Assembly: GCA_050084515.1 (NCBI GenBank) | Contig: CM114271.1 | Location: forward strand, 32,364,001-32,428,000 | Reading direction: 5' to 3' | From: Blasia pusilla | Lineage: Eukaryota | Length of the DNA stretch: 64,000 nt | Part shown: piece after piece, positions 3,001 through 47,090 of the stretch | Layout: every line of letters starts with the position of its first letter | Numbering within the stretch: position 1 is the first letter of the stretch | The notes under the pieces: model-generated | Told to the model about the DNA's origin: nothing | What the model saw: the letters and a program-made list of their open reading frames with translations, nothing else | Database searches by the model: none | Position numbers and translations under genes: made by a program

Positions 3001-3142
3001 TCTCCACTTCCCTTTCGCGCTCCTCGATCTCTTGCTGCCTTATCTCATTGGCCGAACGAGGCCTTGGAGATGGTGATGCAGGAGTCCTGGACTTGGGAGT
3101 GAAGCTCCCAGCCTTGCTTGCTTGAGTTTTTTTCCTCGTCAT
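1..3142 (-). pseudogene. 5' part (exons 1-2) of ParB/Srx-like + DNA methyltransferase gene, copy A
   Basis: ATG at 3142; exon 1 to 1972; GTAAG donor 1971; AG acceptor 1563-1562; motif FI*DGNHRFMAW at ~2095-2130; stops and frameshifts; homologous to copy B. Confidence 0.65.
1610..1940. repeat. ~64-bp tandem units, each carrying the 29-bp palindrome, inside intron 1
   Basis: Units start near 1695, 1759 and 1823 (CCGACGAGTTGCTTTCGGCCAAAAACATCCTAAAA...GCAACTCGTCGAACT). Confidence 0.85.
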
Positions 3143-3180
3143 TGTTCCCGAAAATGCCACCTCCTCGACAATGAAATTAC

Positions 3181-3280
3181 CTCGATGAGTTGCCTCGATG
3201 AGTCGCTCGAATCGTCTAGCGATGAGTCGCCTCGATGAATCACCTTGATGAGTCGCTCGAATCGTCTAGCGATGAGTCGC
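3181..3280. repeat. Two tandem 50-bp units built from GATGAGTCGC submotifs
   Basis: 3181-3230 and 3231-3280 are near-identical; absent from the homologous position of copy B. Confidence 0.85.
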
Positions 3281-3459
3281 CGTGTAAAGCGCCCCTTGGT
3301 ATCTAGTCCGCTGAAGAGCAATCAAGATCGCGAAACGAAAAACCTAAAATGAGCAAACCCTAGCCTATTTATACTTTTCGAGCCGTTGGGCTGACCGTTG
3401 TGTCGCACAGTCGTTCCGACGGCGACGTGTCGGCCGTTATGGAGGTTTGGACGTGAAAA

Positions 3460-4020
3460 CCATCAACCCAAAAGTCTCCGATGGGTTGGAGGCATCCGTC
3501 CTAGCCGAGATATCTGGCAACCTGTCGGAGTCCGACATGTTGCGCACCTCCGCTGTCTTGGGGGAAGAACGCGAGATACCCGCGCAACCCGTCGATGACC
3601 GACGGCTTGCACCCTTCCCTTGTCTTGGGATAACAAGGCGGGGTACCTGCGCAACTCGTCGAAGGCCGACGGGTTGCACAATTTCTTCATGTAAGCGTTC
3701 CAAGGCGAGGCACTTGCGCAACCCGTCAAAGGCCGACGGGTTGCACGCTTCCCTCATCTTGGGGTAATAGGCGGGGTACCTGCGCAACTCGTCGAAGGCC
3801 GACGGGTTGCACGCTTCCTTCATGTAAGCATTACAAGGCGAGGCACTTGCGCAACCTGTCGGAGGCCAACGGGTTGCACACTTCCCTCATCTTGGGGTAA
3901 TAGGCAAGGTACCTAGGCAACTCGTTCGTTACAGACAGGTTGCACTCCTTTCTATCCCTAGGGTAACAATGTGACAACGGATAGTTTCGAGGCAACCTCT
4001 TGCAATCCGACGGGTCACAA
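3460..4020. repeat. Tandem array of ~66-bp units with palindrome GCAACCCGTCGGA-N-(T/G)CCGACGGGTTGC
   Basis: Palindromes at about 3517, 3583, 3651, 3717, 3783, 3851, 3917 and 3992. Confidence 0.9.
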
Positions 4021-4954
4021 GATCTACCCTGAGTTGGACAATCCCATAATAGTCCCCAACGATTAGTTACCTTAGCAAATGTGTCAGATATGTCAAAGAT
4101 TTTCACATATCAAAATAGTCCTATCCTCAAAGCCAACAGTCATGTGAGGCTTTGTCCTTCTTTTCTTGGGGGACCTTTTGGCCTCAATAAGGTATTTAAC
4201 ATTATCAGTAAGCTCGTGCGATTCTTGATGATACCCTGCACAAGCCATAGAAGTAATTAGATCATGACGTGTAAATGATAAAAATAGATCATAATCTAGA
4301 GTGCCCTAATGAAATCTAATTGGAGTTATATAAGAAAATGAACTTACTTTTCAAAGTTGATGGCTTCTCTACAAGTGCATCATTATATGACACATTGGAC
4401 GTTGTTTCTTTTCCACTTTGAGCCGATTTAGAGACCATGCGCATGAGTACATTCATTTTCAATTTGGGATCTCATATCATGTAGAACTTCATCCAATTTG
4501 CTCTCCACCTCATTCATGTGGGAAGTGACATCTAATTCAACTCCCTATCAAACATAGTAGATAATTATCATAAGATGACAATACTTTCTCTTCCAAATTT
4601 CCTGATTTTTCCTTTCTATCCATGACTACTACACTAATTTATTTTGAAACTTGTGTGTTACCCGTGATGCCCAACTAAAATCTGTACTGGTGGGGTGTAA
4701 TAATATTACCTCCTCTCTTGTTGTACCATGAACAAAATTGTATCTTTTTGGAACCCCCTAAAATACAATAAGTCGGTGGCCTCGTTTTGGGTTGGGCCTA
4801 TGGAGGACGCGGTGAAGGGAGATGTGTGTGATTGAATTGTGGTGTCATAATTCAAATAAGAAACAAGTACAAATTTCATATGTAAGCTGATGGGAACGCC
4901 TAAATTTTGAGAGGAGAAGAACCCAACAATTTTAAGCTACGTTTTTACAACTAA

Positions 4955-7228
4955 AAGCTAGGTCACATGTCAGGTTAAGGGCTTACTGACAACACGTGTG
5001 AGCCTAATCGGTCGTCGTAGTTCAAAGTCTAGATATGTGAGCGGGCCTTCGTCATTTGCTTGGCCAATAGTGTTTTTGGATGTGGTGAGTAAAGGTTAAT
5101 GAGCACGTTATCCACGTTTATGGTAAACCAACTTGGTGCCACACGAGGTATTATGGAGGGCGTACGTACGTGAGAGTGGAGCGCCCCTCCCATTTTTTGG
5201 TGGATTCTAATCTAGACCCTAGCCATCAATCACATGCAGTGAGGTAGAATGATCGACCACCATTAATTGTGGTCAATAGAATAGGTAGGCCGTGGGCAAC
5301 CTTTCCCATTTTTTTAAGTTTTCCCGCTTCCTATTCGTATAAGGAGGCCAGTCCTGCTTGGTATAGGATGACAAGGCGGAGCGGTTGATGGAGCCCAATT
5401 AAAAAAAAATGCAAGGTCGATGAGCAAGATCGAGCGAGCGATGGGGTTTCCCACAAAAGTAACGGAAATACTGTCACTATTAGAGGCATTATAACGTCAT
5501 GTCTTAGGTCAGGCGATGGTCGTGAGTAGCGTGACATGGATTACCAACTTAGAAGTAGTTGAGAAACGTTGGATGAGGTTGTGGAAGGTCAAAATTATTG
5601 CTTGGGTAAGCCCCATCCCTATCGATCGGATTGAGGATCGTTTGGGGCAAGACCCGAGGAGATTGGCACATCACAAGTGATTGGGAGAGATACCCTTAGA
5701 CTTCTTGGGATATTTTGCAGGTATGCTAAGAGATGGCAATGTCGTGCAAATCCACATCGTCATACAACATACATCGCTGACATACCATATTCACATACAT
5801 ACATAACATAGACGAGAGTAATCACAAACACACCACAACTGAAATCCATGGAAGACCTACTGTCATAAAACACGTATAGAATCACATACAATCGAGCCAA
5901 ACCCACTCCACGATGGGAGAATCTAGGTCGAAGCTTGCGGGAAACACCATAGCCAAGGGCTCTACTCACTACCAAGGCTAACTCCCAACGCAACAGGCTC
6001 AACTCAAAGAACTGACTGTTCTTTGAGTGCACTCCACCTTATATCCTCCAACCTAAGAGCGGGCCCTACTGGGAAAGTCACCCCCAACTCAGTAACCCCC
6101 AACCCTATATATGAAACCGCATCTCTACCAAGCCACTACGGTCCTACATAAGGAATGGCCTCTACTAGCACACTATACTCTACGACATAATCCGTATGGT
6201 CATGACAGCAACCATAACATTGAGCGCTAGCGTGGTGAAAGGCCCTGCACACCAAGGAGCTAGATGAGATTTGCAGTTGGTTGTAGGGCAATAGTCGGGT
6301 TCTATTGTTTGAGATGGGGTTGCACCATAGCAACCACAGATACTTGTGCCATAGAGTCCTACAAAAGTCATGATGGAGACTTGGGAGCCATGTATGGGCC
6401 CTAAGTTGATAGGAGGCCGAAGATCGACACCCGATACATGAGTTTCTTAGGAGTCATAGGAGCTACTTTGCATTTAGTATGTATGATTTGGGTACATTGA
6501 AGGGTCTAGGGATTCGCATTGGGGTTTTAAGAGATATGCTGATCTTTTGATGACTCGACAAGTACAGTGATATGGAAAGGGCTCTCATTAAGGGTAGGAG
6601 CCATGACTTGGTTGGATTAGGACTAGTGGAGATGTCATACGGAGAGTATGCATCTGCCACCATCATGCTTGCCAAGAAGGATGTGCATGCATATGACAAC
6701 TAGACAAATAGGCGAATTTATGGAGACTACTGACCTATCAATCGGCATACAAAGTTTGATAGGTATGCGCATGCTATGCTCACTCCTGAGGAGATCTTTG
6801 ATGCTATTAGGCATGCAAAGGTCTTTAGTTCTTTAGATCTTTGAGCCTGACACCGTAAGTTGCCTAGGAGATTGGAGGACAAGCATGAGAAGATATTTTG
6901 GGGCATTGATCCTCACGAAAAGGATTGTTTGTACCACTGGAGGTTCTTACCATTTGGGTTAAAGAGTGCTCTGACAGAGTTTTAGAGGATCATGGATAGG
7001 ATCTTGGTAGGTCTGGATTTTACGAGATATTTTATTGATGGTATCGTAGTCTTTAGCGCCACGGTCAATTGAGGAGCATGACTGATATTTGGAGGAGGTG
7101 TTACGATAATTGTAGTTACATGGACTGAAGCTATATCCACGCAAGTGCAAGTTCTTCTATGACCACATTGAGTACTTGGATCACACGATATATCCAAGTG
7201 GCCTTGGTGTTCAAAAGATGAAGATAGA
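4955..7228 (+). mobile_element. Decayed Gypsy-like fragment (C5-DNMT C-terminal part, then RT), split by a solo terminal repeat
   Basis: Nucleotide homology to 48445-50250; DNMT-region remnants (RLW.TNL, AMGFP, LGQAM); RT remnants (DYR-like, YFIDGI, GLGVQK). Confidence 0.8.
5740..6207 (-). mobile_element. Solo terminal repeat unit (A+B), 468 bp, with 4-bp TSD GCAA
   Basis: TGTCGTG...CATGACA; homologous to 10638-11107; GCAA at 5736-5739 and 6208-6211; flanks rejoin to match the uninterrupted sequence near 49275. Confidence 0.92.
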
Positions 7229-7347
7229 TGTAGTGTGCATATACATCGCTACATCACATATATCACTGTCAATGAATATACACACAAACACGCACGATCC
7301 AATGCTAACTCATGGCATCCAAACAATTAGACGAGAACCAAAATATC
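7229..7347 (-). mobile_element. Terminal A unit of a second-subfamily split-repeat retroelement
   Basis: Reverse complement matches ~33808-33929; starts with TG exactly where the upstream RT remnant stops. Confidence 0.75.
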
Positions 7348-8534: not shown

Positions 8535-9100
8535 TCTCCTAATGCCATCAGATCCTGCCTAGCAAGTGGGGTCCACATCCAGGGTTGCTCCGAGATATAT
8601 GCCACCTTTTGAGGTTGCAATCCACCTCAATGACCGGAATCCCATATTGTTGAACCACCCTAGCGACCGGATGTTGCGAACTTCCAGCAACGGAGGGCTT
8701 TTGAAATAAAACATTCACTGGTTTTGGAGAAGTTATTGCATCACGGATTTGTGAGCAATCCGGGGTCTCCGAATACCTGGGCGTAATTTCCTCATCCAAA
8801 TCAATCACCGGGTTCGTTCCTCGATGCCGCCTCTTCACTTGGGTGAAGTCAAGATACTTATCTGATCTCCACGAGTCTCGCTCGAACAACTCTACCACCA
8901 TCTGTATGGGATGTCTTGAAACACGCCCACGAATATCCCCACCAACGTGGACATCTTGCTCAAGAGGAGTTCCTGCTACGCACCGATTGAAGGCTTCCAC
9001 ATAGAGTTTTTCGTATTATTGTTGAAGGACCATTGGCAAATAATTTGACCAGAAGTAGGAATTTCATCTCAATGAAAGGTTCAAATAAAGACTCTAACTA
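7757..9100 (-). pseudogene. C-terminal part of SWIM zinc-finger (MULE-type transposase-like) gene
   Basis: PTCSCDDF-x9-FPCKHMYYVL is a SWIM CxC-xn-CxH motif; upstream frames (WHISR, YFF.PNE) broken by frameshifts. Confidence 0.7.
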
Positions 9101-9624
9101 TGGTCTCAATTGACTCCAGTGCCCTTCAAGGTTTAACTTCTGTGAATATGTGGTTGACATTATGGATTGTTGACTCTTCTTGCAAAAGACATCAAATACT
9201 CATCAATAAGGGGCAAAAGAAAGGCAAAAGGAAATGCCTTTAAATGATTGCTGACTCTTCTTGCAAAAGGCATCAATACTCATCCATAAGGGGGTTTTCC
9301 ACAATAGAACAAATCACTCGTCACTCATGGTAGCCAAAGACTTTCATTTCATCATTTGATGATGTGGGCTTATGAATGGGTGCACAAAGTACACCATGGA
9401 CTACTGTGCGTTTGACAACTTGGTTTCACCATTCTCTCTCCCCCTGATAAATGTGATCACATAGCTGTCAGGAGTAAAGAGGAACTAATCAAAAAGAAAA
9501 TGTGATCAGACGAGACAACAATTGAAGCAAAAGATATTTAGCTGTTAGGAGTAAAGAGGAACTGACGCACCCATGTCCCTTCATTTAGATCCTAAATTTG
9601 AGAATCCGAGAAGCTGCACCCCTC

Positions 9625-9910
9625 CCAACCCGTCGAAATTTGACAGGTTGCAAGTCTTGCAACCCGTCGGAATCGGATGGGTTGCACCCCTTGCAAGCAA
9701 GCTCACCATAACAAAAGAAGTATTTTGAGAAGTGATTCCATTCCGATCTTTTGAGGCATTCTAGCAGGCTTCTTCACTTTTGTCTCGTTCCCCTATTATC
9801 ATCAAACCATTCTTCTCTAATTCTTCTCTTCTCTAAGACGTGTTGGATTCCTACTACTTGTCGGATTGCCATTTGGAATTCCCAACCAGTTGGATTCTCA
9901 ACCTGTCGGA
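9625..9910. repeat. Palindrome cluster
   Basis: e.g. TGCAACCCGTCGGAATCGGATGGGTTGCA near 9658. Confidence 0.75.
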
Positions 9911-10049
9911 TCCTAAATTTTACAAACACCATCATGGTTCAAAAAATTCTTGTCCTTTATTACATCCAACGGAAGCTCAGAAATGTACATTTGATCTAGT
10001 CTATGATTTCTTCAGCCTCGTCATCTACAAATTTACTCCTAACTCTCCT

Positions 10050-10637
10050 AGGTTCCTATACAAAAGGAATGTCCTGGGATACAAGTAGACGAGGATAAAA
10101 AATGTTGGGGAATTCGAGAGCCTTGGCCCTCCCCTAGGTACACCATAACGGTCCCATGTAACCTGATTTGAGTCCCACTGCCTTCCTCAGCACTAAATCT
10201 TGTACGCTCTGCAAGGTGACACCCATCCAGTATCAATATGTGCTCCGTCCTTGGAAACCAATAAATCCCTACTCCAAAACGCTTAAGTCAAGATGGGTCC
10301 TTTAGTTCTTTGAACTCACTCCTCATCGTCCGAGAGCTCTTCCAGAATTACTGTCGGCCTTGCCCTCCCGATTTTTAGAATTGTGGGAAGTGACGATGGT
10401 GTCACTATCCATGGTGGGTCTGGAACCGGAGCTCTCGGCTTTGGAGGAGAGTTGTATGCTCCCACTAGCCTGTCGTAATCTACCTTTGCCTCTTTGCAAA
10501 GGTCATAAAGTTCTTGCCTTCCCTCAAGGCAGAGAATGTTCCTGCCACTCTGCCAGGCGCCTCTGATACTCGCCCTTTGATAGGCCCACTAAGTCGAAGA
10601 CCAAGTCACCCGGCCTTGAACAGAGCTCGATGAGCAT
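10050..10637 (-). pseudogene. C-terminal part of beta-class N4C/N6A DNA methyltransferase domain (SAM-binding region); 3' limit approximate
   Basis: MLIELCSRPGDLVFDL...(frameshift)ASIRGAWQSGRNILCLEGRQELYDLCKE; continues the frame GGTEKSPALMQ from the other side of the retro insertion. Confidence 0.7.
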
Positions 10638-11213
10638 TGTCGTGCGAATCCCCATCGTCATATAACATACATCGCTGACATACCATACTCACATACATAC
10701 ATAACATAGACAAGAGTATCCACAAACGCAAGTGTACCACAACTGAAATCCGTGAAAGACCTACTGTCATAAAACACATTTACAATCACATACAATTGAG
10801 CCAAACCCACTCCACGATGGGAGAATCTAGGTCGAAGCTTGCGGGAAACACCATAGCCAAGAGCTCTACTCACTACCAAGGCTAACTCCCAACGCAACAG
10901 GCTCAACTCAAAGAATATTGTTCTTTGAGGGCAAGCCACCTTATATCCTCCAACCTAAGAGCGGGCCCTACTGGGAAAGTCATCCCCAAGTGAGTAACCC
11001 CCAACCCTATGTATGGAACCGCATCTCTACCAAGCCACTACGGTCCTACATAAGGAATGGCCTCTACCAGCACTATACTCTACGACATAATCCGTATGGT
11101 CATGACAGCTGTCGTGCAAATCCCCATCGTCATACAACATACATCGCTGACATACCATACTCACATACATACATAACATAGACGAGAGTATCCACAAAGG
11201 CAAGTGTACCACA
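10638..11213 (-). repeat. 3' terminal repeat block: A (10638-10741), B (10744-11107), GC, A (11110-11213)
   Basis: The two A copies are near-identical (~104 bp); B matches 19566-19917; junction CATGACA-GC-TGTCGTG. Confidence 0.92.
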
Positions 11214-11228
11214 ACTTGCCCCCCTAAC
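11214..11228 (-). promoter_or_regulatory. Polypurine tract
   Basis: Minus strand reads TTAGGGGGGCAAGT immediately before TGTGG, the start of the inner A unit. Confidence 0.65.
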
Positions 11229-11388
11229 TGGCGGTTAGGTCCCTCTAACTCCCAGGTAGCCCTATACATCTACTACATGCTATACACCTTCTTGGGTGCC
11301 CGAATCAGAAGGCCGGGTGCTAGGTTGCCCCATCGTTAGTCGCACATCTGTAATCCATATCATGCAGAGATCAAGTCATCTACCTCTC

Positions 11389-12830
11389 CTAAGTACATCG
11401 AGGACAAACCCACCTTCTAGTAGGAACAACATCCAAACGTGGAGTCAAACACATCATGTGCCAACCCCTAGAACACCGATCACACACCAACATACGGGCT
11501 GCGTTACCAGCAGACCCACACAACATGCACCTCAAGCTAGCACGTATCATGGCTAAGCTTGGGTCAACAGTACCATCCACATTTGGAAGATGACATGGCG
11601 CACAATTACGCACATGGTCCTTCCAAACAACTCCATCACGACCCTCCAACATGAGAGCTCCAGAAGCTAACACCTCACGCACTCGTAAAATAGTGCGGCC
11701 TGCCGTCACATCCAACGTTGTCGGGGCAATCTGCTGCAAATAGACATAGTCCCCCACATGGAACCTACTAATCGATGGTCGATAACCTCCATCCCGAATG
11801 GTTGCATACCGCAACGTATCCCTGTGTTGAGCAATGGCAAGATTCTCAAAGGCTGTTGGCATAACTCTCCGAAAGAGCTCCGCCCGCTGAGAACACACCC
11901 TCATCCACATCTCTGGGTCATCAAGGTCCACCACCTCACTAGACTCCCGACAAATTCTTTGCTTGGCAAGTCCGGATCTCGCCGATAATGAGAAAATAAG
12001 GTGAGAAGGAAGCCAAGGATGCTTGGCGATCGAACCTATACCCCATGGCTAACCATGGCAACTCGAATATCCGGTCTCCAAGATGCCCTTCAGAGGCCAT
12101 ACTTGCGCGATGCCCTCTTCTTCACCGTCGAACCACACGCTCAGCCAAACCATCCGCCTCTGGATTATCTCGAGACGTGGTCCGATGATCAATCAACGCC
12201 TTGTCACACAAGATCTGAAACTCACCCTGAAACTCAGACCTGGTCGGTCAAGACTTCGGTGGTGCACCAAAATGACTAAGCACTCTATCCAGAAATGCAT
12301 ACGCCCGTTCCTCACTTGCCTTGTCCGTAATGCCACCAACTCAATCCACTTGGAGAAGTGCTCCACCATCACCAACACATATCGATGATGTCGCATCAAT
12401 GGTAACGGTCCCCAAAGTCCACACTCCAACGGTAACCCAACCCCATAATAGGCAAGGGGTGTAATTGTGGTGTAGGGGCATTAAATGATGCCCTCACCGG
12501 TCACAAACCATACAACGTGACACCAATCGCTGCACTTGAGTATGCATGCCACGCCACCAATATCGCCAAGGAGTAAGCTATACGACGCTTTACCCCAAAA
12601 TGTCCCAACTCCTCATGGGCATGTCGCACAATGCGCTCTCTGTGAGCCAAATGTGGCACTACTCGTACTCTACCATCCTCCCACATACGGAGAATATGTG
12701 TTCCCTCCAATCGATACCTCTTAGCACGTTGAAGAACACGGTCTCGCTCCTTGGCACTCACTATGCCTGGCACCCTACTGGTCCGTAGGAACTCCAACAC
12801 CAACGCATCATCATGAATATCACGCTAATC
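11389..12830 (-). pseudogene. DDE integrase with C-terminal PHD finger
   Basis: HAHEELGHFG Zn motif; GPLP...YVLVMVEHFSKWIE rve core; CMLC...LVCDRCSRGWHMMCLTP...WVCPRC is a C4HC3 PHD at ~11395-11535. Confidence 0.9.
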
Positions 12831-13049
12831 CGCACCACCATCTCCAACCTTAGGATCTCAAGGTGGCCATCTACCCTCGACTAGAGTAAGATATCATGTG
12901 GTCCTCCATACTAGAGTCCACCCCTTACCAACATAAAAAGGGGGATGCATGCCAACCTGGCACCATCTCCTCATCAACCTTGCCATGCCATCTAGCCCCA
13001 GTTGGATCCTCTTGGCTAGTACATGGGTTCCTACTCAACCCATCAAAGC

Positions 13050-14380
13050 ATCAAGGTTGGCAACTCTGTGTCTATGTACCACTTGGAAGTCATACTCTGT
13101 AAGATAAGAGCCCACCGTGCAAGCTTCCTGTAAGCTTGTCCGACTCCATCAACCACTTGAGCGGTGGTGATCAGTAACAAGGGTAAACGTGTGCCAAACA
13201 AGTAACACCTAAAGTGTGCCACACCACACTCGCCAAGCACTCTCCCTCATATGAACTATAGCGCGACTCATTTGCATTATTCGAACGACTTGCATAGGCC
13301 ACCACAAACTCCATGTGCTCATCATCATGTTATGTCAACACCGCTCCAAGTCCCAACCTACTCCAATCGTGTGTAATCGAAATGGGCGCCTCGATAGGTC
13401 TCCTCAAGATAGGCGCCGCCACCAACTCGGGCCTTAAGCTCCCCAAAAGCTCTCTCCGATCATCTCCCAAAGTGCCACTCTTGATCTCATTTCAGCAATT
13501 GGTTCAAAGGCTTTGCCATAGCACTAAATCCCTTCACATACCTCCGATAGTAGTTCGCCAATCCCATGAATGCTCGAACTCTACTCACATCTACCGGACG
13601 CAGAATAAGTGCAATAGCCTCCACCTTTGCTTGCTAAACTCCCAAACCACCTGGATAGATCACATGACCCAAGTACTCAACATCCTCATGGAAGAACTTA
13701 CACTTTCCTGGATGCAAACATAGACCATGAGCTTTCAACCGCTCAAACACCATCTGCAAATGTATCTGATGCTCCTCCACCGTGTTACTGAACACCAAGA
13801 TATCATCAATGTAACACCGAACAAAATCCAACCCTGCTAGGATCCTGTCCTTGAAACTCGGCAGGTGCATTCTTCAACCCAAAGGGTAAGAATTTCCACT
13901 GGTACAAACAATCCTTGCCATGAGAGTTGACACCCCAAAATGTTGTCTTGGCCTTGTCACTCTCCCGAATCGGCAATTGATGGTATCTTGCCCGAAGATC
14001 CAAAGTACTGAAAATATTTGCCTGTCCCACCACATCAAAGATCTCCTCAGGTGTAGGCATGGCATACCTATCGGCCTTGGTTTGCCGATTGATAGGACGG
14101 TAATCTCCACACATCCACCTATCCGTGTAGTTGCCGTGCATATCCTTTTAGCGAGCATGACAAAGGTGGGCGATGCATACTCTCCATGCGACAACTCCAC
14201 TAATCCGGCCTCCAAAAGGTCCAACGCCCTACTCTGAATCAGGTCCCTCTCCATATCACTATATCGGTAGGGACGACGGAAGATTGGCGTATCACTAGCC
14301 AAATCAATCCGTATACCGGGTCCAACCAGAGAACCCAACTCCTTCATGCTAAAGGCAAAACAACTCCTATAAGCACGTAG
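13050..14380 (-). pseudogene. Reverse transcriptase + RNase H (Gypsy-type)
   Basis: RMCGDYRPIN, FSTLDL..YHQL, LPFGLKNAP, CYIDDIL, KCKFF..VEYLGH; RNase H HFRCYL, KLARWALILQ. Confidence 0.95.
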
Positions 14381-14749
14381 GAACTGTGTCAGCGTCGTTT
14401 CTCACCTCCCGTAAGCTTGGGCCCAAGTAATGGCTCCCAAGTCTCCTCCTTTGGCATACTAGAGGGAGAGGCGATGCCATTGGTCGCTACGCAACCCCCT
14501 CACAAGATGATACACCCTTAGCTACACCATCATCCGAGCAAATAACTCCTCCACCAAAGCATGAGCTACCAACTCCACATGCCCAACCATTACATCCCAT
14601 TTACTCCAAGGATGCAAAATACTACTCTCCTCGCCCCTTTGACCGATGCCTCTATCGCCCGGTAGCCATCGAGCTCATTACAAGGGGTGGAAGACCCATG
14701 ACATAGTCCGAAATCGACGCTCGCCACCCATACCAAGACTCAAAATCCA

Positions 14750-15700
14750 AGTCAAACAATTCAGGTCCATGGCTGACCCAACACATGACGTCGTGAAGCC
14801 TCAAAAATAGAAGCAACGGCATTTGTCACACCGAAGAGCAAATCCCATCGACGCTCTCTCTCATCGGTGTTAGGCTCCACCAACCGCCGCGACATGAGAA
14901 TCCCATACAAGCCCCGGACCACCTTCCCTGTAGGCATGTGACGCTGGAAAACTCACAAATGTGGGTAGTGCCATCCTAGGTCGGCCCACACGGTTCACCA
15001 CGCCATGGGTGACCGATCAATAACCCTCACCACTTGAGAAAGTCGCCCAAGATTCAAGATACTATCCTTTGTAAGGTGAGGATCCGGCCTGCACCTTTGC
15101 ATCATATGCTCGACGTAGAACCTCCCTAGGCAACAAGTTTGTCCACCACAAGCGTGGGCGATGTGCACGCTGAGCCAACTCATGTTGCATCCAACAATAC
15201 CGCTGGTCCAATCCAAGACCGCACTCATGAACACTCGCCATCATCCGGGTCCGAGTGTCACCCAACAATGGAACATTCTCGAATGTAAGCTAGAGCACGT
15301 GTGCGATGAACTGAAGATGTCGTAACACCCGTAACATCTCCCAAAACAATCGAGACCTAGGGTCATGTAATCCCTCACCACGACCAAAGACGTGTATGAC
15401 CCCGACATGGCCATCCAAAGCAATCACCAAATCCACAGGACCAACCCTCTCAAGGTCCTGCGCCCCCAACAATGCAATGTGTGATGGTAAAGCACGCTGG
15501 TACCCACGAATAGCGATGGCGGCAACAACTCGGATATCTCGCATCAATCGACCAATATGTCGGGATGAGACTCTCTGGGCCGTCTCATCTCGCTCCACAT
15601 ACACGTATCTCCGACAGAATACCGCCCTGCAACATCGCCGCCAAACCGGTGCTAATCCCACCAAAGAGATTTAACACACAAATGCCCTCCGGGGATCTTG
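14750..15700 (-). pseudogene. C5 cytosine DNA methyltransferase domain within pol
   Basis: Motif I VLNLFGGI; motif IV VDLVIA-GWPC.GH; SRLFWE; motif VI ENV; motif VIII RAHRPRLWWTNL; motif X RHVLGQAMD. Confidence 0.9.
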
Positions 15701-16049
15701 CGCCATACAATGGATGTAGTATCCAAAGGGGATAACCCCAATCGGGCAGAAGTAGGAGTCCGTGGGGCCTCCTCTTCCTCGTGAGGTATAATGACCTCAC
15801 ACCAAGCCTCCTGCACTAGGCGTCAGCCTCTGCCGTAGTGCACCCCTGAACTCCAAAGTGGCACATCCGATGAGGATGCCTTTGCTGCAAAAATAGGGAC
15901 CTCCTCTTCCTCCTTATGCGCAGGAGAATCCATAGCGAAACATTACCCTCCAAAAGTCTCTGGCCAAGTGACTACTCCACTAAAACCAGACCCACAGATG
16001 CTAACATCTGTTGGGGAAGACCCTCATGGTCGAGCCCCGAAATAAATCT

Positions 16050-16500
16050 CACAGAACTTGGCTCATACGTCCATCCCGGATCGCCAACCTGGTCTATAAG
16101 ACGCTGTCTCACTCCAAGTAATCCATCTGAAAACCCATCGGGTACAATCATCGCTCCTCCAACTAGTACATCATACGACTCGACCGGTGATGTGACTACC
16201 GCAGATATTCCCAACCGGGAGCTATCGGTCGCATGATCCGGTCTCAACTGCATGAGAAAAATTCTCCCGTGTCATGAATTGAGACCTATCATTGGCTCCT
16301 CCAAGTGATGTTTGAATCTGGAATGGGCAAGGCTCAAGCTCGACCTCCGAATACCCAAACCAATACATGCCGCCTTTCCCAACATCAAGGTTGGGCACCG
16401 AGTCTAACAAGACTCTATCCGGTCTATACACCTATCTGTAGGACTCACCAATCAGAAGATCCCACCGGTTGTCCAACATACATACACCGGTGTAAGCCTC
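16050..16500 (-). pseudogene. Aspartic protease remnant
   Basis: RVLLDS(G) active site and YDVLVGGAM C-terminal motif. Confidence 0.75.
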
Positions 16501-16899
16501 TCACGATCAATGGCTGGCCGGGCCGGTAATGCATCCATCTTCGCTTTGCTACCCGCCAAGTAGCTTTGGTACTCAATGCTACTCGACATAGAGGGTCACT
16601 CCACCGCAACACCCTCATCCACCTCAACACGTAGCAAGAATAACACCCCACGTTCACACAACGTGGTCGCTAATCGAAATACAGGTGCTAAGTCAACTCC
16701 TAAAGCCATCGCTCCGTGGTGGAAAACAATGAGATCCCAACACTGAAGTTGCCATCCGCACATCGATCGATCTTTGCATCCGTGTCTACTACACGCGATG
16801 TAGATGCCTCAGTCCCCACTGTCGGCTCAATAGGCTGCGTAGGAACCATGGATGGAGTCCTAAGCACCTCAGACAACAAGAATGACTGGGGAAGCCTAG

Positions 16900-18460
16900 C
16901 TTGCCTCCCAGCCTCACCCCTCTGTGGGTCCAACTCCTGAGAGCACAACGTGGCTCGACGCTTTCGAGTGGCTCCTCAGAATCGCAGCCGGTGATGCCTC
17001 AACTTTTGTCCGCACTCGCCATATAAGAGAGATCATCCCCTCCATAAGAGGTGGAAGCCCTGCTCCCGAACTTGATCTATATGTCGGATACCGACCATAG
17101 TAGCCAACCGCTCCAATCGCTCAATCTCGGCGACCATAGCGACTCTGTCGAGTGGTCGGGTAGCCACCGTAGGCTCTCCAACCACTGGTCCACCTCTACC
17201 ACCCCTACCATCTCTACCACCTCGGCCTCTCGGAGCTACTCCACCAAGGCCACGGCCTGATCTCAACTCTGGATGAAGATCAAAGCAACGCTCTCGAGGA
17301 TGACCTAGTCTCCCGCAATGATCACACTGAGTTGGGGCCGACTGAGGCCCATCCTCCAAAGTCCGTCTCCCATCCTCTTGGGGACAAAACTTCCTAACAT
17401 GATCACCTCCACATGTCCAACATGACTGTCCTTGCTGCGGGGCAGCAAATGAAGGCAATGGTCTCTGCAAAAATGTCCCTCTAGGACTTGATCGAGGTCG
17501 CGTGTACCCCCACGACTCCCACTACTACTACCACCACCACTACTACGAGCGTGAGGTGGGCGGCTGAACACGAGAAGTAGTAGTTGTATCCCCTCTTGAA
17601 TGCGGATGTCACCACTCTCTCCTTCACCATGTTAAGCTCAATCTTCTCGAGATAGAGCAAACACATGGATCAATGTGGGTGAATCATCACTCATAAGAGT
17701 AGCATCACGCACCCTACGGCGCAAATCTCTCGTCCAAGATCCCATACCAAAATCGGATCGCTGATCCTCGTCACACCTGGTAATCGAAATCAAGCGTCGA
17801 TACGCTGGCGTGTATGCCTCACGAAGACTCTCACCAGTCTTTCGCTCAAAGTCTGAAGATTCCTCAACTTCTCCGTCTTCACTCCTTGATAGTTCTTCTT
17901 CAACCTCTTGAAGAACTCGCAATCGGGCTAAATGATGGTGGGGCACTAGTACCTCCACTAGAACCCCACTAGTACCTCCACTTTGGTACCCCCACTCCGG
18001 CTCGCACTGCGTACCACTCAACGTCGGGCTGGCTGGCATAGTAGGAGCACTACTACCAATACCACCATGGGTGATAGACACATAGCCTGGAGACCAATAT
18101 TGTCTCCATGCCTCAATCTCAGCAACATGGTCCTTCCTAAACTCATGGTAATCATCCATGGGTGGTCCTTCCAAGTGCTGAAACAACCCTTCCAAGCCAA
18201 GAAGGGTGTAAACAACGTGGCATTCCGCAACATCTGCATATCACACCACGTATCAAACTCCTGCATGAAGTCCTCCAACTCAATGGTACCCACTGCACCC
18301 GAGTATCGTCGTGGGCCCTTCATGGCCCCATATCCACCGTCCATGTCCCAAATCAATGGAGCGCAACACTCGATAACAACGTAGAAGACTCGGTGTTTGG
18401 AACACCTCGCCCTCCTCTTCATCAACCGTCGGAAGTGGAAAAGGTAGCCGATACCTAAAT
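16900..18460 (-). pseudogene. gag with two zinc knuckles
   Basis: CWTCGGDHVRKFC and CDHCGRLGHPRERC; GESLREAY capsid-like motif. Confidence 0.85.
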
Positions 18461-19553
18461 CCACTCCATGTGAAACCACCACTGTCCGCACCACGGTCCC
18501 CAACCAGACCACCCGACAGCTCCGTGATGACCAACGCCGATGCCGCACCACCACCAAATTACCAAGTAACGTCGATGTCGCTATACTATTCTAGCTCTAC
18601 TAGCTATGGGTGTAGGCAACCTAACTTGTCATCACCACAAGAAGTCTCCCACAATCTACTCGTCATCCCTCCAGCCTCACTACCGGTAGCACACAGGAGT
18701 AACACTACTCTGGAAATCAACGTCAACCCTAACAATGGGCGCGCAAGCAAGAAGCACGATGGAGGGGATCCAAACAGAGGAAATCCAACGACAACCCTCC
18801 AATCGCAAATGGAAATCAAGGTAACACAATCCACCAAACGTGGTGCCCTCTGAATCCACAAAACCCACCACACAATTCTAACGCAATAGCTACTCCGCCG
18901 CGGGTCGATGACGTGCTAGTCGAACGCGCAGCACCTAAAAATATCACCTGCATGGCGAGGCTACACCGTACTATGCGCTAGAGGTACATCAACCAAAAAC
19001 TTGAGATGCATAAAGCGCCTAACACATCTCCGAACAGCACCAAATGAGCTACAACAGTCTGTACACTAGCATAGTTAAGAACTCGGCGATTAAGCGTCCT
19101 CCGAGAATAGCCCAAAGATGGGTGACCAGTTATGCAAAACTCAAATCCCAAATCCTGCAAAAATTGCCTCACGCCCAAGCAAGCAAGCTTGCTTGCTTGC
19201 TCCTTGCTCCTTACTCCGCCTCTCACGCCCACTCGCCCCGAGTTGCCTCGAAGCCTCTCACCCGATCTGGATGAACTTCAACACAGCTTCCGCACTCCAA
19301 GCTCTCCACATCAGAAAACCGTCGAACACGAACCAGAATCTTCAATCCTTGATAACTTCCAACTCCCTTGACGAAAACCGGCGATCTAAAGCGCATTGGA
19401 AAGCTCTCAGCAAGGCGCTTCTTTCCCAACCAATCGCGCACCAGATTCACACCTCCAACATAGGCCACAAGCCACGAACATCCACGGCTGAGTACACAAT
19501 CAGCCCTAACAAGATCCTACTGATCTACAATCGAAGCTACCATCGATCTACTC

Positions 19554-19565
19554 CAGTTCTTTGAG
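19554..19565 (-). promoter_or_regulatory. Putative self-priming primer-binding site
   Basis: Minus strand CTCAAAGAACTG directly follows the ...TTTCA end of repeat B and is complementary to minus-strand CAGTTCTTTGAG (19740-19729), which starts 29 nt downstream of TATAA (19769-19765). Confidence 0.75.
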
Positions 19566-19917
19566 TGAAATCCGTGAAGGACCTACTGTCATAAAACACG
19601 TTTACAATCACATACAATTGAGCCAAACCCACTCCACGATGGGAGAATCTAGGTCGAAGCTTGCGGGAAACACCATAGCCAAGAGCTCTACTCACTACCA
19701 AGGCTAACTCCCAACGCAACAGGCTCAACTCAAAGAACTGACTGTTCTTTGAGGGCAAGCCACCTTATATCCCAACCCTACTGGGAAAGTCACCCCCAAG
19801 TGAGTAACCCCCAACCCTATGTATGGAACCGCATCTCTACCAAGCCACTACGGTCCTACATAAGGAATGGCCTCTACCAGCACTATACTCTACGACATAA
19901 TCCGTATGGTCATGACA
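19566..19917 (-). repeat. 5' terminal repeat B (TG...CA, contains TATA box)
   Basis: Matches 10744-11107 apart from a short deletion; no A unit at this end. Confidence 0.92.
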
Positions 19918-20274
19918 GCATTTGCATCAAGGCAGGGGACTTTTCCGTTCCTCCAAGTAAGGGGGTCCTGTCTTGCATGTAAATTCCCGGGGGAATTGTA
20001 TAAACTATCTAAGTTGTACCCATCAAAGCATGGATTGATTGGATCTAGGATCTCGAACACTTGGAAGTTGTGCTCGGGCCTTACAAAATAGTAGACAAAG
20101 GAGTGGTCCATCTGTAAAGAAGCAGGTTGGAAACAATGTCAGAAAAAAGAAAGAGCTACTTGACCGTTGGTCTACTCTCAATATGGTGACACAATGTGCA
20201 ACATGTCCATAGTGCATTCTAGTCCTTGTTGATTACCAACTCATAAGAACTTGGCCTATAGTCCTAACAGTAGA

Positions 20275-20615
20275 GGAACCTGTCGAAGTCCGACGGGTTG
20301 TTTTACAAGTGGAAGTGTTTTTTTTGCCATGAGCAACCCGTCGAAAGCCGACAGGTTGCTAGCTTAGAGTAACCTGTGGTTGGCTAAGAGCAACCCGTCG
20401 CTTTCAGACGGGTTGCATCACTCCAGAAACACAAGGAAAAGCACAAGTACTTGCAACCCGTTGGATTCCAACAGGTTACACTCACTCAATGAGACTTGTG
20501 GTAAATTTGCAACCCGTCGCTTTCAGACGGATTGCAAAACCGTAGCCACAAGCTTGTGGGATCCAATAGGTTGCATGCAGAGATGCAACCCGTTGGAGCC
20601 CGACGGGTTGAATTT
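20275..20615. repeat. Palindrome cluster in intron 2
   Basis: About six copies (near 20277, 20333, 20390, 20453, 20508, 20585). Confidence 0.85.
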
Positions 20616-22719
20616 GGATTAAGAGCACTTACCCGGACTTGACTCATCGCCAATCGGAGTGGATACTCGTTCTTGATGACCCATGATTGCACTGTCCTCC
20701 ACTTCAACGACCTCTTCACGCATTGAAGGTTGAAGAGCTTGTCCTTGGTCCCTCCAGTCAAGACCAAGAAACAACCCTGTCACTCAGATAAGCGTCTGCA
20801 AAAGAAAACAAGAGCGCGATCTGGTCGTAGGAAAGAGGGACAGTGCAGTCTAGGACAGTGTCAGATGGATTGTTGTCCCACAAGCGAAACCCAAAGGGCA
20901 AATTTTGTGATGAGGAGATCCACCGCCACCTCCTCGACCACCCCATGGACCGTCGAGAGAGCATGCACATTTCGTTGAAGGTTTTGTCCCAGCATGGTCA
21001 ATTTGTCGATGGCGAGTGTCGACTCCTGGGAACTAAAACTTTGCAGCTCATCCACAAGATGAGTGAAGTGAATGAGGATATTTGTCCTAGTCGTTTTTTC
21101 TCTATGCCTTCCCAAGGATGATGGAGTGTATTCCATATCCTTATCTCCTCCCTAGGACAAACCAAACGCCTCCCGCTTTCGCTTCTCCCGAGTCTATGGT
21201 CGGCCTATGGGGGTATCTGTTACCTCAGACTCCATTGGAGTTTTCTTGGCGGAGGATCTGGTCTGGCCCTCTCGCCCCGCTTGCTCGGACGATTCCACCT
21301 CTCGCCTTGAGGTATCAGCCTCTTTTTTGGAAGAATCGACCTCAAAATTCTTCGCTCCCCTCGCCTTTGCTTTCAAACCCGCTATAGATTTGTTCTTGGT
21401 GGTGACGACCTTGGACACCAACTCCACTGTCTTGAGGGCTTGCTCCTCCGCATCTCCTTCAAAAAATCTTTAGGATGCATAAAATTTGGAATGTCGTCCC
21501 TACCTGCGACCACTGCATCATAGACCAGACATAGATTTTTTTCGGTTATGTCCTTAGAGTCGTTGAAGTCCAACCAGATTGGGCGATTGTCAACCTCCCA
21601 ATCGGACATGCCCTATGCCATCTCCATGTCGTACATAGATAATGCCTCTCCATCAGGCGGAGAAGCCCACAATTTGCGGGCTGCCGGTATGTTTCGCCAA
21701 GCACCTGCATTCTTACAATTGATGAGGTACCTGTACACCATCCGTCGGGCTGCTCTTTGTCAAGATGAATTGGCCGCCTGCTCCTGAAGATCCCGCTTCT
21801 TCTTTGCGAAATCCCTTTTTTTGGCGTCAATTTCTTCATCCAGGTCTGCCTAAGGGAGGATGTGATTCTTGAACATCATCCTGAAGCCTGGATTTTTCGT
21901 GGGCTTGTCTCGGATGCCATCAAGCCATAGTTTGAAATCTTCTGCAGTTTCTAGGTTTGGTTCCTCCGGAACTGGCTCAATCTTCTCCAGCTCTGCTTGA
22001 AGACCCATGAGCATGGACTTCCCGAGAAGCGGCAACGCATCCCAGAATGACCATTCACTTAGCCAATGGGAGATCATTGGATCAGAAACTCCCGGAGGAT
22101 GGTGTGCCGCCTGCTTTTGGGCCTCTGTGCCCTCCACACTGATTTTCATCAGTCAAATTCTCCTAAACTCAGAAATTCCAGACAGTGCAAATTTGTGAAC
22201 GCGGTCCATAGACACTTTCTCGCCGATCCAACCCTATAGATCTTCGTCTCTCTTCCGCTGACGCTTGGTTATCGCCTTGAGCTCCTTGTAGAATTCTGGG
22301 CCAAGTTAGGGGTTCAGAATGGCAATGTATCGCTGCATCTTGCTTGCAGTGTACTTCATAGCTGCAGATATTGCAGACTTGATAAACTTTGCACGTTCAG
22401 ACGCAGACATGTTCCCCCTTCGCTCCAATTCCAATGAAGCGCTCTTCTTGGCAGCCTGGATCTTCGACCAACAAAGGATTGTGACGACTGCATCTTAGGA
22501 AATGAAGGTATTTGCCCAAGTCTTCTTTTTAATTTGAGCCCCCTTCGCCAGCATCTCATTTACCACAGCGTCGCCCAAGAACCCCTTGTACTCTGTCGGG
22601 TCCGTCGTAAGCACCTTTTTCACCTTGTCACAATCCTAGATCCAATGGTGGGTGACATTCCCCTCGGATACAATCCTGTACATCCAAACACACGCTAAGA
22701 ATTATTGCAAGCTACTAGG

Positions 22720-23385
22720 TTCCTACAACCTGTCGGACTCTAACTGGTTGCAAGACCTGGTGGTCGAAATGGTGGCATAGAGAAAAATATTGCAATCCGT
22801 CAGAGTCCGATGGGTCGCAACACCTTTTTTCTGTTACACTTATTGCAACACTCAAGCAAATTTTGAGACATAATTGCAACCCATCAGAGTCCGAAGGATT
22901 GCACTCGGATTTTGTGATTTTCTAGTCCATCCGTTTTGGTCCTTGGCTACAACCCATCGGACTCCGACGAGTTGTAAAAAATAGCATATATCAACCCGTC
23001 GAAGTCCGACAGGTTGCGCAATTTGTTGTAAAGGTGGGATTGGACGCCTAAAAGCAAGCTCTCCTACTCCGACCACCTACCTATGGGGGCAAATGCAACC
23101 CGTCAAAGTCCGACGAGTTGCTTTCGGCCAAAAATCCCAAAAATAGCGGACAGTCCTATTTTTAGGCGTCCGATGATTTGTTACCACTAGTTTAACAACT
23201 CGTTGAAGTTTGACGGTTTGCAGAACATATAAATCATGCACTCATTTTTACACCCGTCGATGGTGGACTGGTTTTGGTATCCCAGCTTTCTCTAGTGTGC
23301 TTGGCCACCAGGCAACCCGTCGGACTCCGACGGTTTGCTTGAAGCTTTCCAATTATGCAACCCGTCTGACACCGACGGGTTGAAG
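22720..23385. repeat. Palindrome cluster in intron 1
   Basis: About nine copies, e.g. GCAACCCGTCGGACTCCGACGGTTTGC near 23312. Confidence 0.85.
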
Positions 23386-24904
23386 CAATCAAAATTAAGG
23401 AAGAGGAAACTTACCCATTCATGGCATGGATTGCCATTTCCACCGTTGCCATGTGATGAGGAAAATGCGCCTCCAATGAATTTGGGCGCTCCTATGTAAA
23501 CTGGGTCCACACCATGTACTTGTGGTTTCCATCCCAGATGAAGAAGTAAAGGTTCCGCATCCAGCTAAATTGCGTCCCCTCAATCGCTCTTCTGAACTCC
23601 TGATCTCTCATCCTCCAGAATGTATCGAGCGCTTCCAAGTCCTCTTCCGTCACTAGCGCTTGGGTTCCATGTTCATCGTAAGGCTGAACATAGAACGGAG
23701 AGAAGCTGTCGACGTAGGATGTTGTCACTGCCGACTATTTCAACTTTGTAATATCCTCCTCCGAATGAATTTTGCGGACGTACTCCATGGTCCGCAATCG
23801 GCAAAGTAGAATTCTCAGGGCGTTTTGGCCCTCCATCAGTGCCATCTGCTTAACAACTTGCCACAATGGGGACCAAGTCAATAAACTACACTGTTTTGCC
23901 AATGAATTGCATCATGGGCCTTCACATAACTCAAACGTTTCTTACCCGCTCAAAGATTGGGTCGGTGTCTTGGCCGACCAACTGCTTTGGGACAATAGCT
24001 GGCAAATCCACAAGAAACTCATCGATCCGATAAAGGTCGATTTCTTCGGCCGGGATCAAAGACGAGGAAGACTGTTCTCATGCTTCTTCAGAGATGTCCA
24101 CCATCTCCACGCTTGCCGTCCTCATGACTTCATCGTCCGTCACTTGAACTTCGGCCGTTTCCTCAGCCGATTTTATATTCATGGTGTCCCCACTTTTCAT
24201 CGGGGACATTTCCTACACCTCAACACTCTGTGTTGGACGGGCAGGGCTTTCTTCAATGGCAATCACTTTTTCCCTTTGAGCTTTTGCCAATTCTGCTCTC
24301 CTCACGGACGCGTCCAGACGCTTTTTCTCACGTTTCTCGTCGGCGACTTTTCTCTTCAAGGCCTACGATGCCTCAGCCTCGACGTTTTGTTTTTTTGAGT
24401 GCCACCAGAACACGTTTTGCAAGAAGCTCCTACCTGTGCATATGTGATTCCCTTTCGCGCTCCTCTATCTCTTGCTGCCTTATCTCATTGGCCGAACGAG
24501 GCCCTAGAGATGGTGACGCAGGAGTCCTCATGGACTTGGGAGTGATGCTCCCTACCTTGATTGCTTGCATTTTTTACCTCGTCATGGTTCCCATCAATGC
24601 TTCCTCCTCGACAGTCTAGTCTCTTTCTGTGCACGAAAATTCCCTCGAATGGTCTCGCGATGAATTTCCGTGACCCTGGACCCAACTCTCTTTGCGTTTT
24701 GTGATGAAGCGCCCTCACCCTCCTCACTTCCCTTGGTATCTAGTCAGCGGCTGCGCGGAAGAGCACATGAAATCGCGAAATGAAAAACAAAAATGAGCGA
24801 AACCTCGGCTATTTATACTTTTCGAGCCGTTGAGCTGACCGTTGGGTCGCACCGTTGTACCGACGGCGACGTGTCGGCCATTATGGAACTTTGGACGTGG
24901 GAAC

Positions 24905-25840
24905 CCAGCCAACCCGACGGTCTCCGACTGGTTGCACGCTTCTCGCGTCTTTGGGATGCAGGGCGAGTTGCCCAGGAAACTTGTCCGAGACCCATGGGTT
25001 GCACGCATCCGTCCTCCTCGGGTAACAAGCCGAGCTACCCTGGCAACCCGTCGGAGACCGACAGGTTGTACGCCTCCCCCGTCTTGGGGTAACAACGCGA
25101 GATACCCGCGCAACCGATTGGAGACAGGGGGATTGCATGCCTCCCTCGTCTTGGGGTAACAACGCGAGGTGCCTGCACAACCCGTCGGAGACCGGGAGTT
25201 TGCACGCTTCCCTCGTCTTGGGATAACAAGGCAAGGTACCCGCGCAACCTGTCGGAGGCCGACGGGTTGCACGCTTCCTTCATGTTGGCGTTACAAGGCG
25301 AGGTACCCGTGCAACCAGTCGGAGGTCGACGGGTTGCACGCTTCCCTCATCTTGGGGTTACAAGGAGAGGTACCTGGGCAACCCGTCGGATACCGATAAG
25401 TTGCACTCTTTTCTCTCCCTCGGGTAACAATGTGACAAAGCAGAGTTTTGAGGAAACCGGTTGCCCTCCGACGGGTTACAAGGTCTACCCGGAGTTGGAC
25501 ACTTCCCAACATACGGCAAAATTGCACTCATGGTTTGCACGGTTAATTGAATAAGAGAAATCGACCCGAGATGCAAAAGGGAAAGCAAGGTTAGGTACCT
25601 TTGGATCCCATAACAATCACCAACGGATTGCCGTAGCAAATCCATGCGATATCTTGTGTTTGATGCTAGCAATCTCGACTCAAATCACATTGGTCAGACA
25701 AGAAGGGGATACCAACCCAACGGACTCCGATAGGTTGCAACTCGCATTGGGGCACTAACAGAAAATGGAACTCCGAGCTTCGCAACCCACGTGTCCGAGT
25801 CCCAAATTCTGCAACCCATTGGACTCCAACAAGTTCCAAC
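24905..25840. repeat. Tandem palindrome array in the divergent promoter region
   Basis: ~67-bp spaced copies at about 25043, 25109, 25177, 25243, 25311 and 25378, plus 25712 and 25810. Confidence 0.88.
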
Positions 25841-47000: not shown

Positions 47001-47090
47001 TCCTTGGGTGGAGCGAGTACCATTTAATTTATCATCCGATAGGAAGTCGTGGTGAGGATTCGCCCAGGACATCCTTTAGATGAGTCACAC

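Follow-up and report, generated by a model that had tools for sequence, protein, structure and literature searches.

In the textbook view, a retrovirus or a long terminal repeat (LTR) retrotransposon inserts a linear complementary DNA (cDNA) by its two ends, so that the insert is left with two equal LTRs. The Tf1/sushi-type Ty3/gypsy elements prime their own reverse transcription and possess an integrase with a C-terminal chromatin-reader domain; Tf1 has ordinary identical LTRs. Another order of terminal repeats, A1 - internal - B1 - A2 - B2, is found in the PAT/Ngaro elements, which encode a tyrosine recombinase; tyrosine-recombinase elements are not known to make target duplications. In this work we describe an element in DNA of Blasia pusilla, located on the minus strand at positions 10638–19917 of a 64,000-nucleotide (nt) stretch (GenBank assembly GCA_050084515.1, contig CM114271.1, positions 32,364,001–32,428,000; hereafter the window). 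Its terminal repeats follow the same order as in PAT/Ngaro, but the enzyme of its lineage is a DDE integrase bearing an H2C2 zinc finger, and the insertions have TG..CA termini and 4-bp target-site duplications. With the Tf1/sushi type it shares an 11-nt stretch after the 5' repeat complementary to a site within the repeat, and an integrase C-terminus of the chromatin-reader type; however, the reader is a PHD finger rather than a chromodomain, and a methyltransferase lies between the protease and the reverse transcriptase (RT).

The layout has been published once, for KnitGypsy-Dnmt3 of Klebsormidium nitens, which according to the legend of Fig. 4c has DIRS-type repeats and Gypsy-typical domains (de Mendoza et al., 2018; PMC5890265). 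In the passages of that paper that deal with it, the element is barely characterised and no mechanism is worked out; nor do they give the ends, the duplications, the placement of the primer binding site (PBS) and polypurine tract (PPT), the palindrome or the mechanism that are treated below. Both elements are described as having a Gypsy-type Pol with a methyltransferase (Dnmt3-like in KnitGypsy-Dnmt3) and A-coding-B-A-B repeats. The likeness is one of description; the hosts differ and the nearest named proteins here come from Marchantia, Sphagnum and Calypogeia. Klebsormidium was not among the named matches of our searches with the RT piece and with the DNA methyltransferase (DNMT) region. A literature search for split direct repeats with an integrase in Gypsy elements revealed no other such element in titles and abstract openings. 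KnitGypsy-Dnmt3 was named only in the 2018 paper, Marchantia DNMT3 Gypsy elements led to one general review, and for Klebsormidium, DIRS and Gypsy terminal repeats there was nothing further among the matches listed.

An earlier note on this DNA, made from the sequence alone, had suggested the Troyka group as the closest comparison. Troyka elements resemble the present lineage in being an unusual Gypsy-related LTR lineage, but they have 3-bp duplications, 5'-CG..CG-3' termini and animal hosts, against 4 bp and TG..CA here, and split repeats are not mentioned in the abstract (Kojima, 2025; PMC12440569). As duplication length, termini and host range all differ, Troyka was rejected as a comparator. 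A further parallel is offered by retroviral integrases, which are reported to cut palindromic 2-LTR junctions (PMC1905944, PMC1180852, PMC4372172).

Layout and ends of the inserted element

A repeat search within positions 9000–21500, combined with reading of the sequence, revealed the minus-strand order B - internal - A - GC - B - GT - A. Three pairs of direct repeats underlie it, 10744–10915/19566–19737 and 10966–11109/19776–19919 with 99% identity each, and 10638–10744/11110–11216 with 96%. The lone 5' repeat, B5 (19566–19917, 352 nt), starts TGTCATG and runs from TGTCATGACC to GGATTTCA. At the other end of the internal region a PPT-like GGGGGG-CAA (11224–11216) followed by GT (the whole tract at 11214–11224; metagenome equivalent GGGGGGCGAGT) directly precedes A1 (11110–11213), which begins with TGTGGTAC (TGTGG at its start) and ends CACGACA. 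Two bases, GC (11109–11108), separate A1 from B3 (10744–11107, 364 nt, with a 12-nt indel relative to B5). A GT spacer (10742–10743) then joins B3 to A2 (10638–10741), the 3' terminus, which also ends CACGACA. The element thus has TG..CA termini (TGTC...GACA), and it is flanked by the 4-bp duplication ATGC in element orientation, at 19918–19921 on the 5' side and at 10634–10637 on the 3' side. The A1/B3 joint forms the palindrome GACA-GC-TGTC (11104–11113), whose letters are the same as those of both insertion ends; its core GACAGCTGTC is a perfect palindrome in the window copy. The layout, coordinates, duplication, termini and palindrome reported in the earlier note were all recovered in this way.

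The limits of the unit were also seen in sequencing data. Contigs of four coded runs were placed on positions 10300–20200; all runs consisted of assembled contigs, and contig depth was unusable as a copy number. At least two Logan contigs of run X3 connect 10632 to 19917 and skip 9284 bases, i.e., the 9280-base element plus four. Because the flanks of the element are themselves repeated, this joint may come from the true empty site or from a paralogue of it, and it defines the limits of the whole B..A unit in both cases. The other contig joints listed (about 10960 to 19780, and 19553–19563 back to 10744–10746) mostly reflect the interchangeable B copies. The family is extremely abundant in the sequenced organism, with at least 241,487 contig pieces placed from run X1.

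We next consider the distribution of the layout. Using an alignment of RT, RNase H and integrase, 80 related metagenome loci were found, and A and B were mapped in them and in the window by blastn. Matches to A or B were present in 48 of the 81 sources, and duplicates were removed by comparison of the flanks. Among 21 distinct 5' ends one was truncated, and the other 20 start at TGTCATGACC or a one-base variant directly after unrelated flank; in none of these 20 does an A adjoin the 5' B, either before it or directly after it, as a canonical A+B repeat would have it. Each of the 24 distinct 3' ends terminates with A, whose last letters are CACGACA or a decayed version of it. Full A-xx-B-xx-A was revealed in eight of them (L013, L024, L034, L035, L077, L025, L052 and L068; L034 is the same insertion as L037 and L038) and a deleted A-B-A form in one (L006, same as L012). 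The remaining 15 have A only (the B-internal-A form), with the locus continuing well past A. Outside the 24, three cut or truncated loci have A followed by B, namely L021, L041 (same as L045) and L061 (same as L064). The split direct repeats in the DIRS-like order A-coding-B-A-B are shared by the window element and its metagenome relatives. All 15 full-length copies examined are decayed.

In total, 14 insertions could be read at both ends, and all have 4-bp duplications, 12 perfect and two with one mismatch. Besides ATGC of the window element and TTGC of a solo copy in the window (see below), these are AATC (L013), AAGG (L024), CATA (L034), AACA/AATA (L035), TCTC (L077), TGTT (L009), TACA (L017), ATTA (L043), GGTA/AGTA (L050), TGTG (L057), TACA (L062) and CACA (L006). 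As the duplicated sequences vary, the GC present in both window duplications is a coincidence. The earlier note had proposed to see whether the ends always fall at the CA/GC/TG site with target-site duplications, and they always do. It had also held that two equal A+B repeats in most copies would reduce its reading to a one-off duplication or an artefact; no such repeat exists at the untruncated 5' ends, the layout being native to the family.

The same ends were used independently within the window. A solo B-GT-A of the same family (5740–6207, minus strand, 92% identity by blastn of the element against the window) has TTGC duplications on both sides and was inserted inside a fragment of another related element; an uninterrupted paralogue at about 49279–49324 has a single 4-nt stretch where the solo copy has two. 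Since it has its own duplication, the same TGTC/GACA ends served in an independent insertion. Moreover, the order of the repeats is found where their sequences differ. L054 contains, at 15160–15820, the 3' end of another family, with A and B in the same order but of unrelated sequence: G11-ATAA / TGAGAA..A'..CATGACA-GT-TGTCATG..B'..ATACA / TGAGAA..A'..CATGACG / flank. A diverged window copy at 33800–34465, read by eye, also carries A-B-A at its 3' end: aggagga - A (to 33927, ..gcaagaca) - AC - tatcacg..B.. - A (34394–34461, ..catgata), followed by flank. Even between the window family and the main metagenome family B differs by 28%; the terminal letters, the palindrome, the PBS-like site and the PPT are common to both. 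We consider it highly probable that B - internal - A - GC - B - GT - A is the native inserted form and that its insertion is of the integrase type.

Coding content and enzyme family

What lies in the window is an ancient, defunct member of a Ty3/gypsy-type retrotransposon lineage with the coding order gag - protease - cytosine DNA methyltransferase - RT - RNase H - DDE integrase - PHD. All its frames are broken by decay, as the list of open reading frames (ORFs) shows. At E ≤ 0.01, Pfam searches of the window's own ORFs gave RVT_1 (1.6e-15 and 3.2e-9) and the PHD finger PF00628 (8.5e-11) and nothing beyond them, with no rve and no DNMT match; the DNMT and integrase domains of the window were assigned only through relatives, by tblastn. 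The order obtained by tblastn is gag, CCHC, protease, DNMT, RT, RNase H, integrase and PHD. On the minus strand we located a gag remnant with a CCHC-type stretch, stops and frameshifts at 17033–18344 (tblastn to P0010 and P0003, gag at 18344–17592; ORF list). It is followed by a decayed cytosine-5 DNA methyltransferase at 14770–15815 (tblastn to P0002 and P0010, DNMT at about 15660–14770), in which a motif I-like LNLFGGISTG is present and the PCQ motif is lost. RT and RNase H occupy 12900–14443 in broken frames (Pfam RVT_1; tblastn, RT at 14443–13600). An integrase remnant with an HHCC zinc-finger region and a DDE core lies at 12140–12824 (tblastn to P0005 and P0003, 12565–12140), and the C-terminal PHD finger at 11389–11527.

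The relatives are better preserved. Pfam revealed rve, Integrase_H2C2, PHD, RVT_1 and RNase H among the metagenome relatives, with rve and Integrase_H2C2 in L034, L013, L062 and L077; the proteins P0005 and P0003 bear PF00665 and PF17921. No tyrosine recombinase (Phage_integrase, PF00589) was found in the 24 + 25 ORFs scanned from the window and its relatives, and the DDE integrase named in the earlier note is thus upheld. The Pol order RT - RNase H - integrase with an rve core (tblastn; Pfam in relatives) is that of Ty3/gypsy elements, and the TG..CA termini and the duplications at the 14 insertions agree with the 4–6 bp of this group. Two equal LTRs, one at each end, are what the lineage lacks, the 5' B standing alone at every untruncated end.

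A 175-residue RT piece used as a query found 11 longer proteins. The best matches are models from Marchantia polymorpha with 79–82% identity over about half of the query, followed by models from Sphagnum fallax and Calypogeia fissa. The lineage appears, from these protein comparisons, to be present in bryophyte-like genomes, its proteins being closest to liverwort and moss models. A methyltransferase domain inside a Gypsy Pol is seen in P0002 and others, where PF00145 stands beside RVT_1 and RNase H; in P0002 the methyltransferase motifs I, IV (GWPCQ) and VI (ENV) are intact. The DNMT region as a query found 45 proteins, many of them Marchantia models with PF00145, and some are distant intact metagenome polyproteins of 1.9–2.3 thousand residues with rve, RVT, RNase H, DNMT and PHD.

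It should be mentioned that many Marchantia gene models (P0012–P0024; 950–1330 amino acids, aa), which are annotated as 'hypothetical protein' or 'DNA (cytosine-5)-methyltransferase', derive from this family and consist of its gag-protease-DNMT(-RT) parts. Such models may inflate the number of methyltransferase genes ascribed to the host in these genomes. A search of a prokaryote genome collection for the distant intact relatives (P0039–P0049) found none. One contig of a viral collection, L081 (9150 nt), is 36% identical to P0044 and has a 99-nt end overlap with 100% identity; it was assembled as if circular, and an LTR element collapses likewise in assembly. Every copy of the family (the window copy and L006–L077) has a skewed sense strand, with G/C of 1.5–1.7, T/A of 1.15–1.33 and an observed/expected CpG ratio of 0.5–0.74; the skew is a trait of the family and not damage peculiar to the window copy.

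Repeat joints, reverse transcription and integration

The motifs next to the repeats are conserved. Directly after B5 lies a PBS-like CTCAAAGAACT (19555–19565, minus strand), the reverse complement of AGTTCTTTGAG within B (19739–19729), which is the putative transcript start and self-primer. The first part of the PBS-like site, CTCAAAGAAC (19565–19556), forms with the next T an 11-nt sequence that is reverse-complementary to AGTTCTTTGAG, located near position 170 of B, and a TATA-like box (19769–19765) stands about 30 nt upstream of the AGTTCTTTGAG site in the window. In the 21 loci with a 5' B, CTCAAAGAAC follows exactly in 10, with a few letters changed in nine, and is lacking in two (L014 and L060). 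Before A1, GGGGGG followed by CGAGT or CAAGT is present in all copies. A PBS-like site with a complement inside B resembles Tf1-type self-priming, which may be its function. Within B itself, both in the window (19744–19729) and in the metagenome copies, a second PBS-like CTCAAAGAAC is located 3–5 nt before its complement GTTCTTTGAG, so that B carries a conserved hairpin where the transcript presumably starts.

From the positions of the PBS-like and PPT-like motifs, the LTR of reverse transcription would be (GT)-A-GC-B, itself TG...CA, in support of the unit that the earlier note had placed between them. With such an LTR, the insertion ends lie at the palindrome inside the LTR, and the B3-GT-A2 joint is a joint of U5 to U3. 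As inverted repeats, the insertion ends TGTCATG and CACGACA match almost perfectly, whereas the LTR ends share only TG/CA, which fits an integrase that recognises the arms of the palindrome. Ten class-1 loci (nine from metagenomes and the window) were compared at both joints. The palindrome core GACAGCTGTC is exact in five of them, has base changes in four and is disrupted in L068. The B3/A2 joint reads CA-GT-TGTGG in seven of the 10 (TTTTCA-GT-TGTGG in six of the nine metagenome loci and TTTCA-GT-TGTGG in the window) and is one base different in two. In the single case of L077 this joint holds filler and CGAG, the letters that flank the PPT; an aberrant plus-strand start would leave these letters, which hints at an origin of the joint from cDNA ends.

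The repeats show no sign of separate histories. Diagnostic columns were absent between A1 and A2 (0/115; seven versus seven sequences) and between B5 and B3 (0/387; five versus seven), and in the window B5 and B3 share 97% identity, whereas their identity to the metagenome family is 72%. Such a pattern fits repeats that are remade in each cycle from one template, like LTRs. Trees of A and B could not date the copies, the metagenome family being star-like, with identity within copies about equal to that between copies. In a tree built from the final 1.5 kb of the internal region of 32 sequences, A-B-A and B-internal-A copies are mixed, with the pairs L027 and L025, L015 and L077, L009 and L024, and L050 and L013. 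Therefore B-internal-A is not a lineage and arises repeatedly. It may originate by three routes with identical products: recombination between A1 and A2 once inserted, B/B collapse of the alternative permutation discussed below, or cutting at both LTR palindromes during integration.

On the basis of the conserved motifs, reverse transcription most likely proceeds as in ordinary LTR elements. It would be self-primed from the PBS-like site after B, would use the PPT before A, and would give an LTR product A-GC-B. Integration would use the TGTCATG.../...CACGACA ends, which stand back to back as the palindrome within the LTR, and not the LTR ends; the 4-bp duplications are the signature of a DDE integrase, which we suppose to act on the palindrome arms. 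The substrate would contain two LTRs head to tail (U5-GT-U3), either as a 2-LTR circle or as an equivalent tandem-LTR cDNA, and would be cut at one internal palindrome, which would leave the extra B-GT-A in the insert. The B-internal-A copies would be by-products, produced by cutting at both palindromes or by later A/A (or B/B) recombination. As in retroviral 2-LTR circles, a CA-NN-TG palindrome in joined DNA would be a possible source of integration-competent ends. In the retroviral case, as reported, the palindrome is the LTR-LTR joint and the route a side one; here it lies inside the LTR, the insert retains the LTR-LTR joint, and the element would depend on this route.

As a whole (native permuted layout, LTR-type reverse transcription, integrase acting at the palindrome and a joined-LTR substrate), this is the explanation that we favour, with slightly better than even confidence. 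The 2-LTR-circle idea of the earlier note is plausible and accounts for every adjacency with one unusual step, but for the cutting of a circle or tandem LTR itself, where both the circularisation and the integrase cut are inferred, our confidence stays somewhat below even. Still more tentative is the generalisation that, in the whole DDE-integrase lineage, cDNA with joined LTRs (circular or tandem) is the sole substrate of integration and is cut at a palindromic att-like site inside the LTR. Several points weigh against the joined-LTR explanation. A symmetric 2-LTR circle should also yield the permutation B-GT-A-GC-B-internal-A, which was found at none of the 20 untruncated distinct 5' ends; a faster B/B collapse into B-internal-A could hide it, but this is an ad hoc rescue. 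The share of B-internal-A, 15 of the 24 distinct 3' ends, is not predicted by the circle model. The PBS and PPT roles are assigned from motif position and complementarity, and since all examined copies are decayed, the model has no active copy to rest on. The asymmetry that is seen would follow from a tandem LTR confined to the right end or from a linear pathway of the DIRS kind; we could derive a priming scheme for neither from the conserved motifs.

Such a linear pathway, like those modelled for DIRS, Ngaro and PAT, would involve no circle and no internal cut. RNA would read through B3-GT-A2, A1-GC-B3 would template both ends, and the cDNA would end at the palindrome, where the integrase would process it normally (CA/GC). 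It yields only the permutation that is observed, the GC after CA equals the two bases that normal 3'-processing would remove, and the repeat order is that of tyrosine-recombinase elements (PMC5890265). We nevertheless regard it as unlikely, although to be taken seriously: with the PBS-like site after B5 and the PPT before A1 we found no priming scheme that copies the GT-A2 tail, neither A1/A2 nor B5/B3 form position-specific lineages, and the L077 joint contains PPT-flank letters as if derived from a plus-strand 5' end. Alternatively, linear cDNA may be the normal substrate; the integrase would cut the palindromes of both LTRs, and most products would be B-internal-A. B-internal-A-B-A would then come only from occasional LTR-LTR-joined molecules and yet be the sole form able to replicate again. 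B-internal-A with perfect 4-bp duplications is indeed the commonest form, with six copies read at both ends, and its scatter among A-B-A copies in the tree implies a repeated origin. However, A1/A2 recombination after insertion explains it equally and leaves the duplication intact, and an element with a sterile main product seems costly; this alternative we judge improbable.

Two other explanations have far less in their favour. From a single copy with all ORFs broken, one might suspect an ordinary LTR element, with A+B or B+A as its true LTR, that was altered by a one-off rearrangement, by a nested insertion or by an artefact of assembly. But the layout recurs in eight distinct full metagenome 3' ends and in partial ones, in a second family with unrelated repeats (L054) and in the diverged window copy, and it is stated for KnitGypsy-Dnmt3 in the legend cited above (PMC5890265). 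With the lone 5' B and an X3 joint that matches the whole unit exactly, this reading is very improbable and was rejected. Site-specific recombination by a tyrosine recombinase, the element's own or the host's, would explain why the repeat order is the same as in DIRS/Ngaro/PAT. It is contradicted by the varied target-site duplications, which with the TG..CA ends are hallmarks of an integrase, and no scanned ORF matches Phage_integrase while rve and H2C2 are present; we assign it a practically negligible probability.

The surrounding sequence and the place of the lineage

The window harbours a cluster of decayed DNMT-bearing elements of one Gypsy superfamily. Four more such fragments, with 65–82% mutual identity, are located at 5060–7265, 28124–29643, 32180–33798 and 45129–50936; a 109-nt repeat occurs at 44192 and 47268. 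The longest open frames of the window, one of 454 and one of 567 aa, lie on the plus strand at 52310–55088, and the first of them matches RVT_1 (1.6e-11); this is probably a different, less decayed retroelement after the 45–51 kb copy. There is also a segmental duplication of about 4 kb (1–4040 and 21113–25501, 77–83% identity), which includes arrays of a 67-nt tandem repeat at 3517–3898 and 24909–25492 and revealed no Pfam domains in its ORFs.

The earlier note had left the novelty of its reading to be checked. In view of the KnitGypsy-Dnmt3 legend (PMC5890265) the layout itself is not new, while the anatomy of the ends, by the literature covered, is. What appears to be new are the palindrome-centred ends, the 4-bp duplications, the permutation as defined by PBS and PPT and the two structural forms, as well as the spread to bryophyte-like genomes and to several families.

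The lineage occurs in several bryophyte-like genomes, is very abundant in at least one, and consistently breaks the rule of two equal LTRs while keeping the signature of an integrase. Software that finds LTR elements by two equal LTRs will miss or mis-bound such elements, and with them their methyltransferase. The mechanism would show which substrates a retroviral-type integrase can use in nature, and would explain the remark on KnitGypsy-Dnmt3. If the proposed route is true, joined cDNA would be a genuine integration precursor and not a dead end, and the split repeats known from tyrosine-recombinase elements would have evolved twice, the second time together with an unrelated enzyme.

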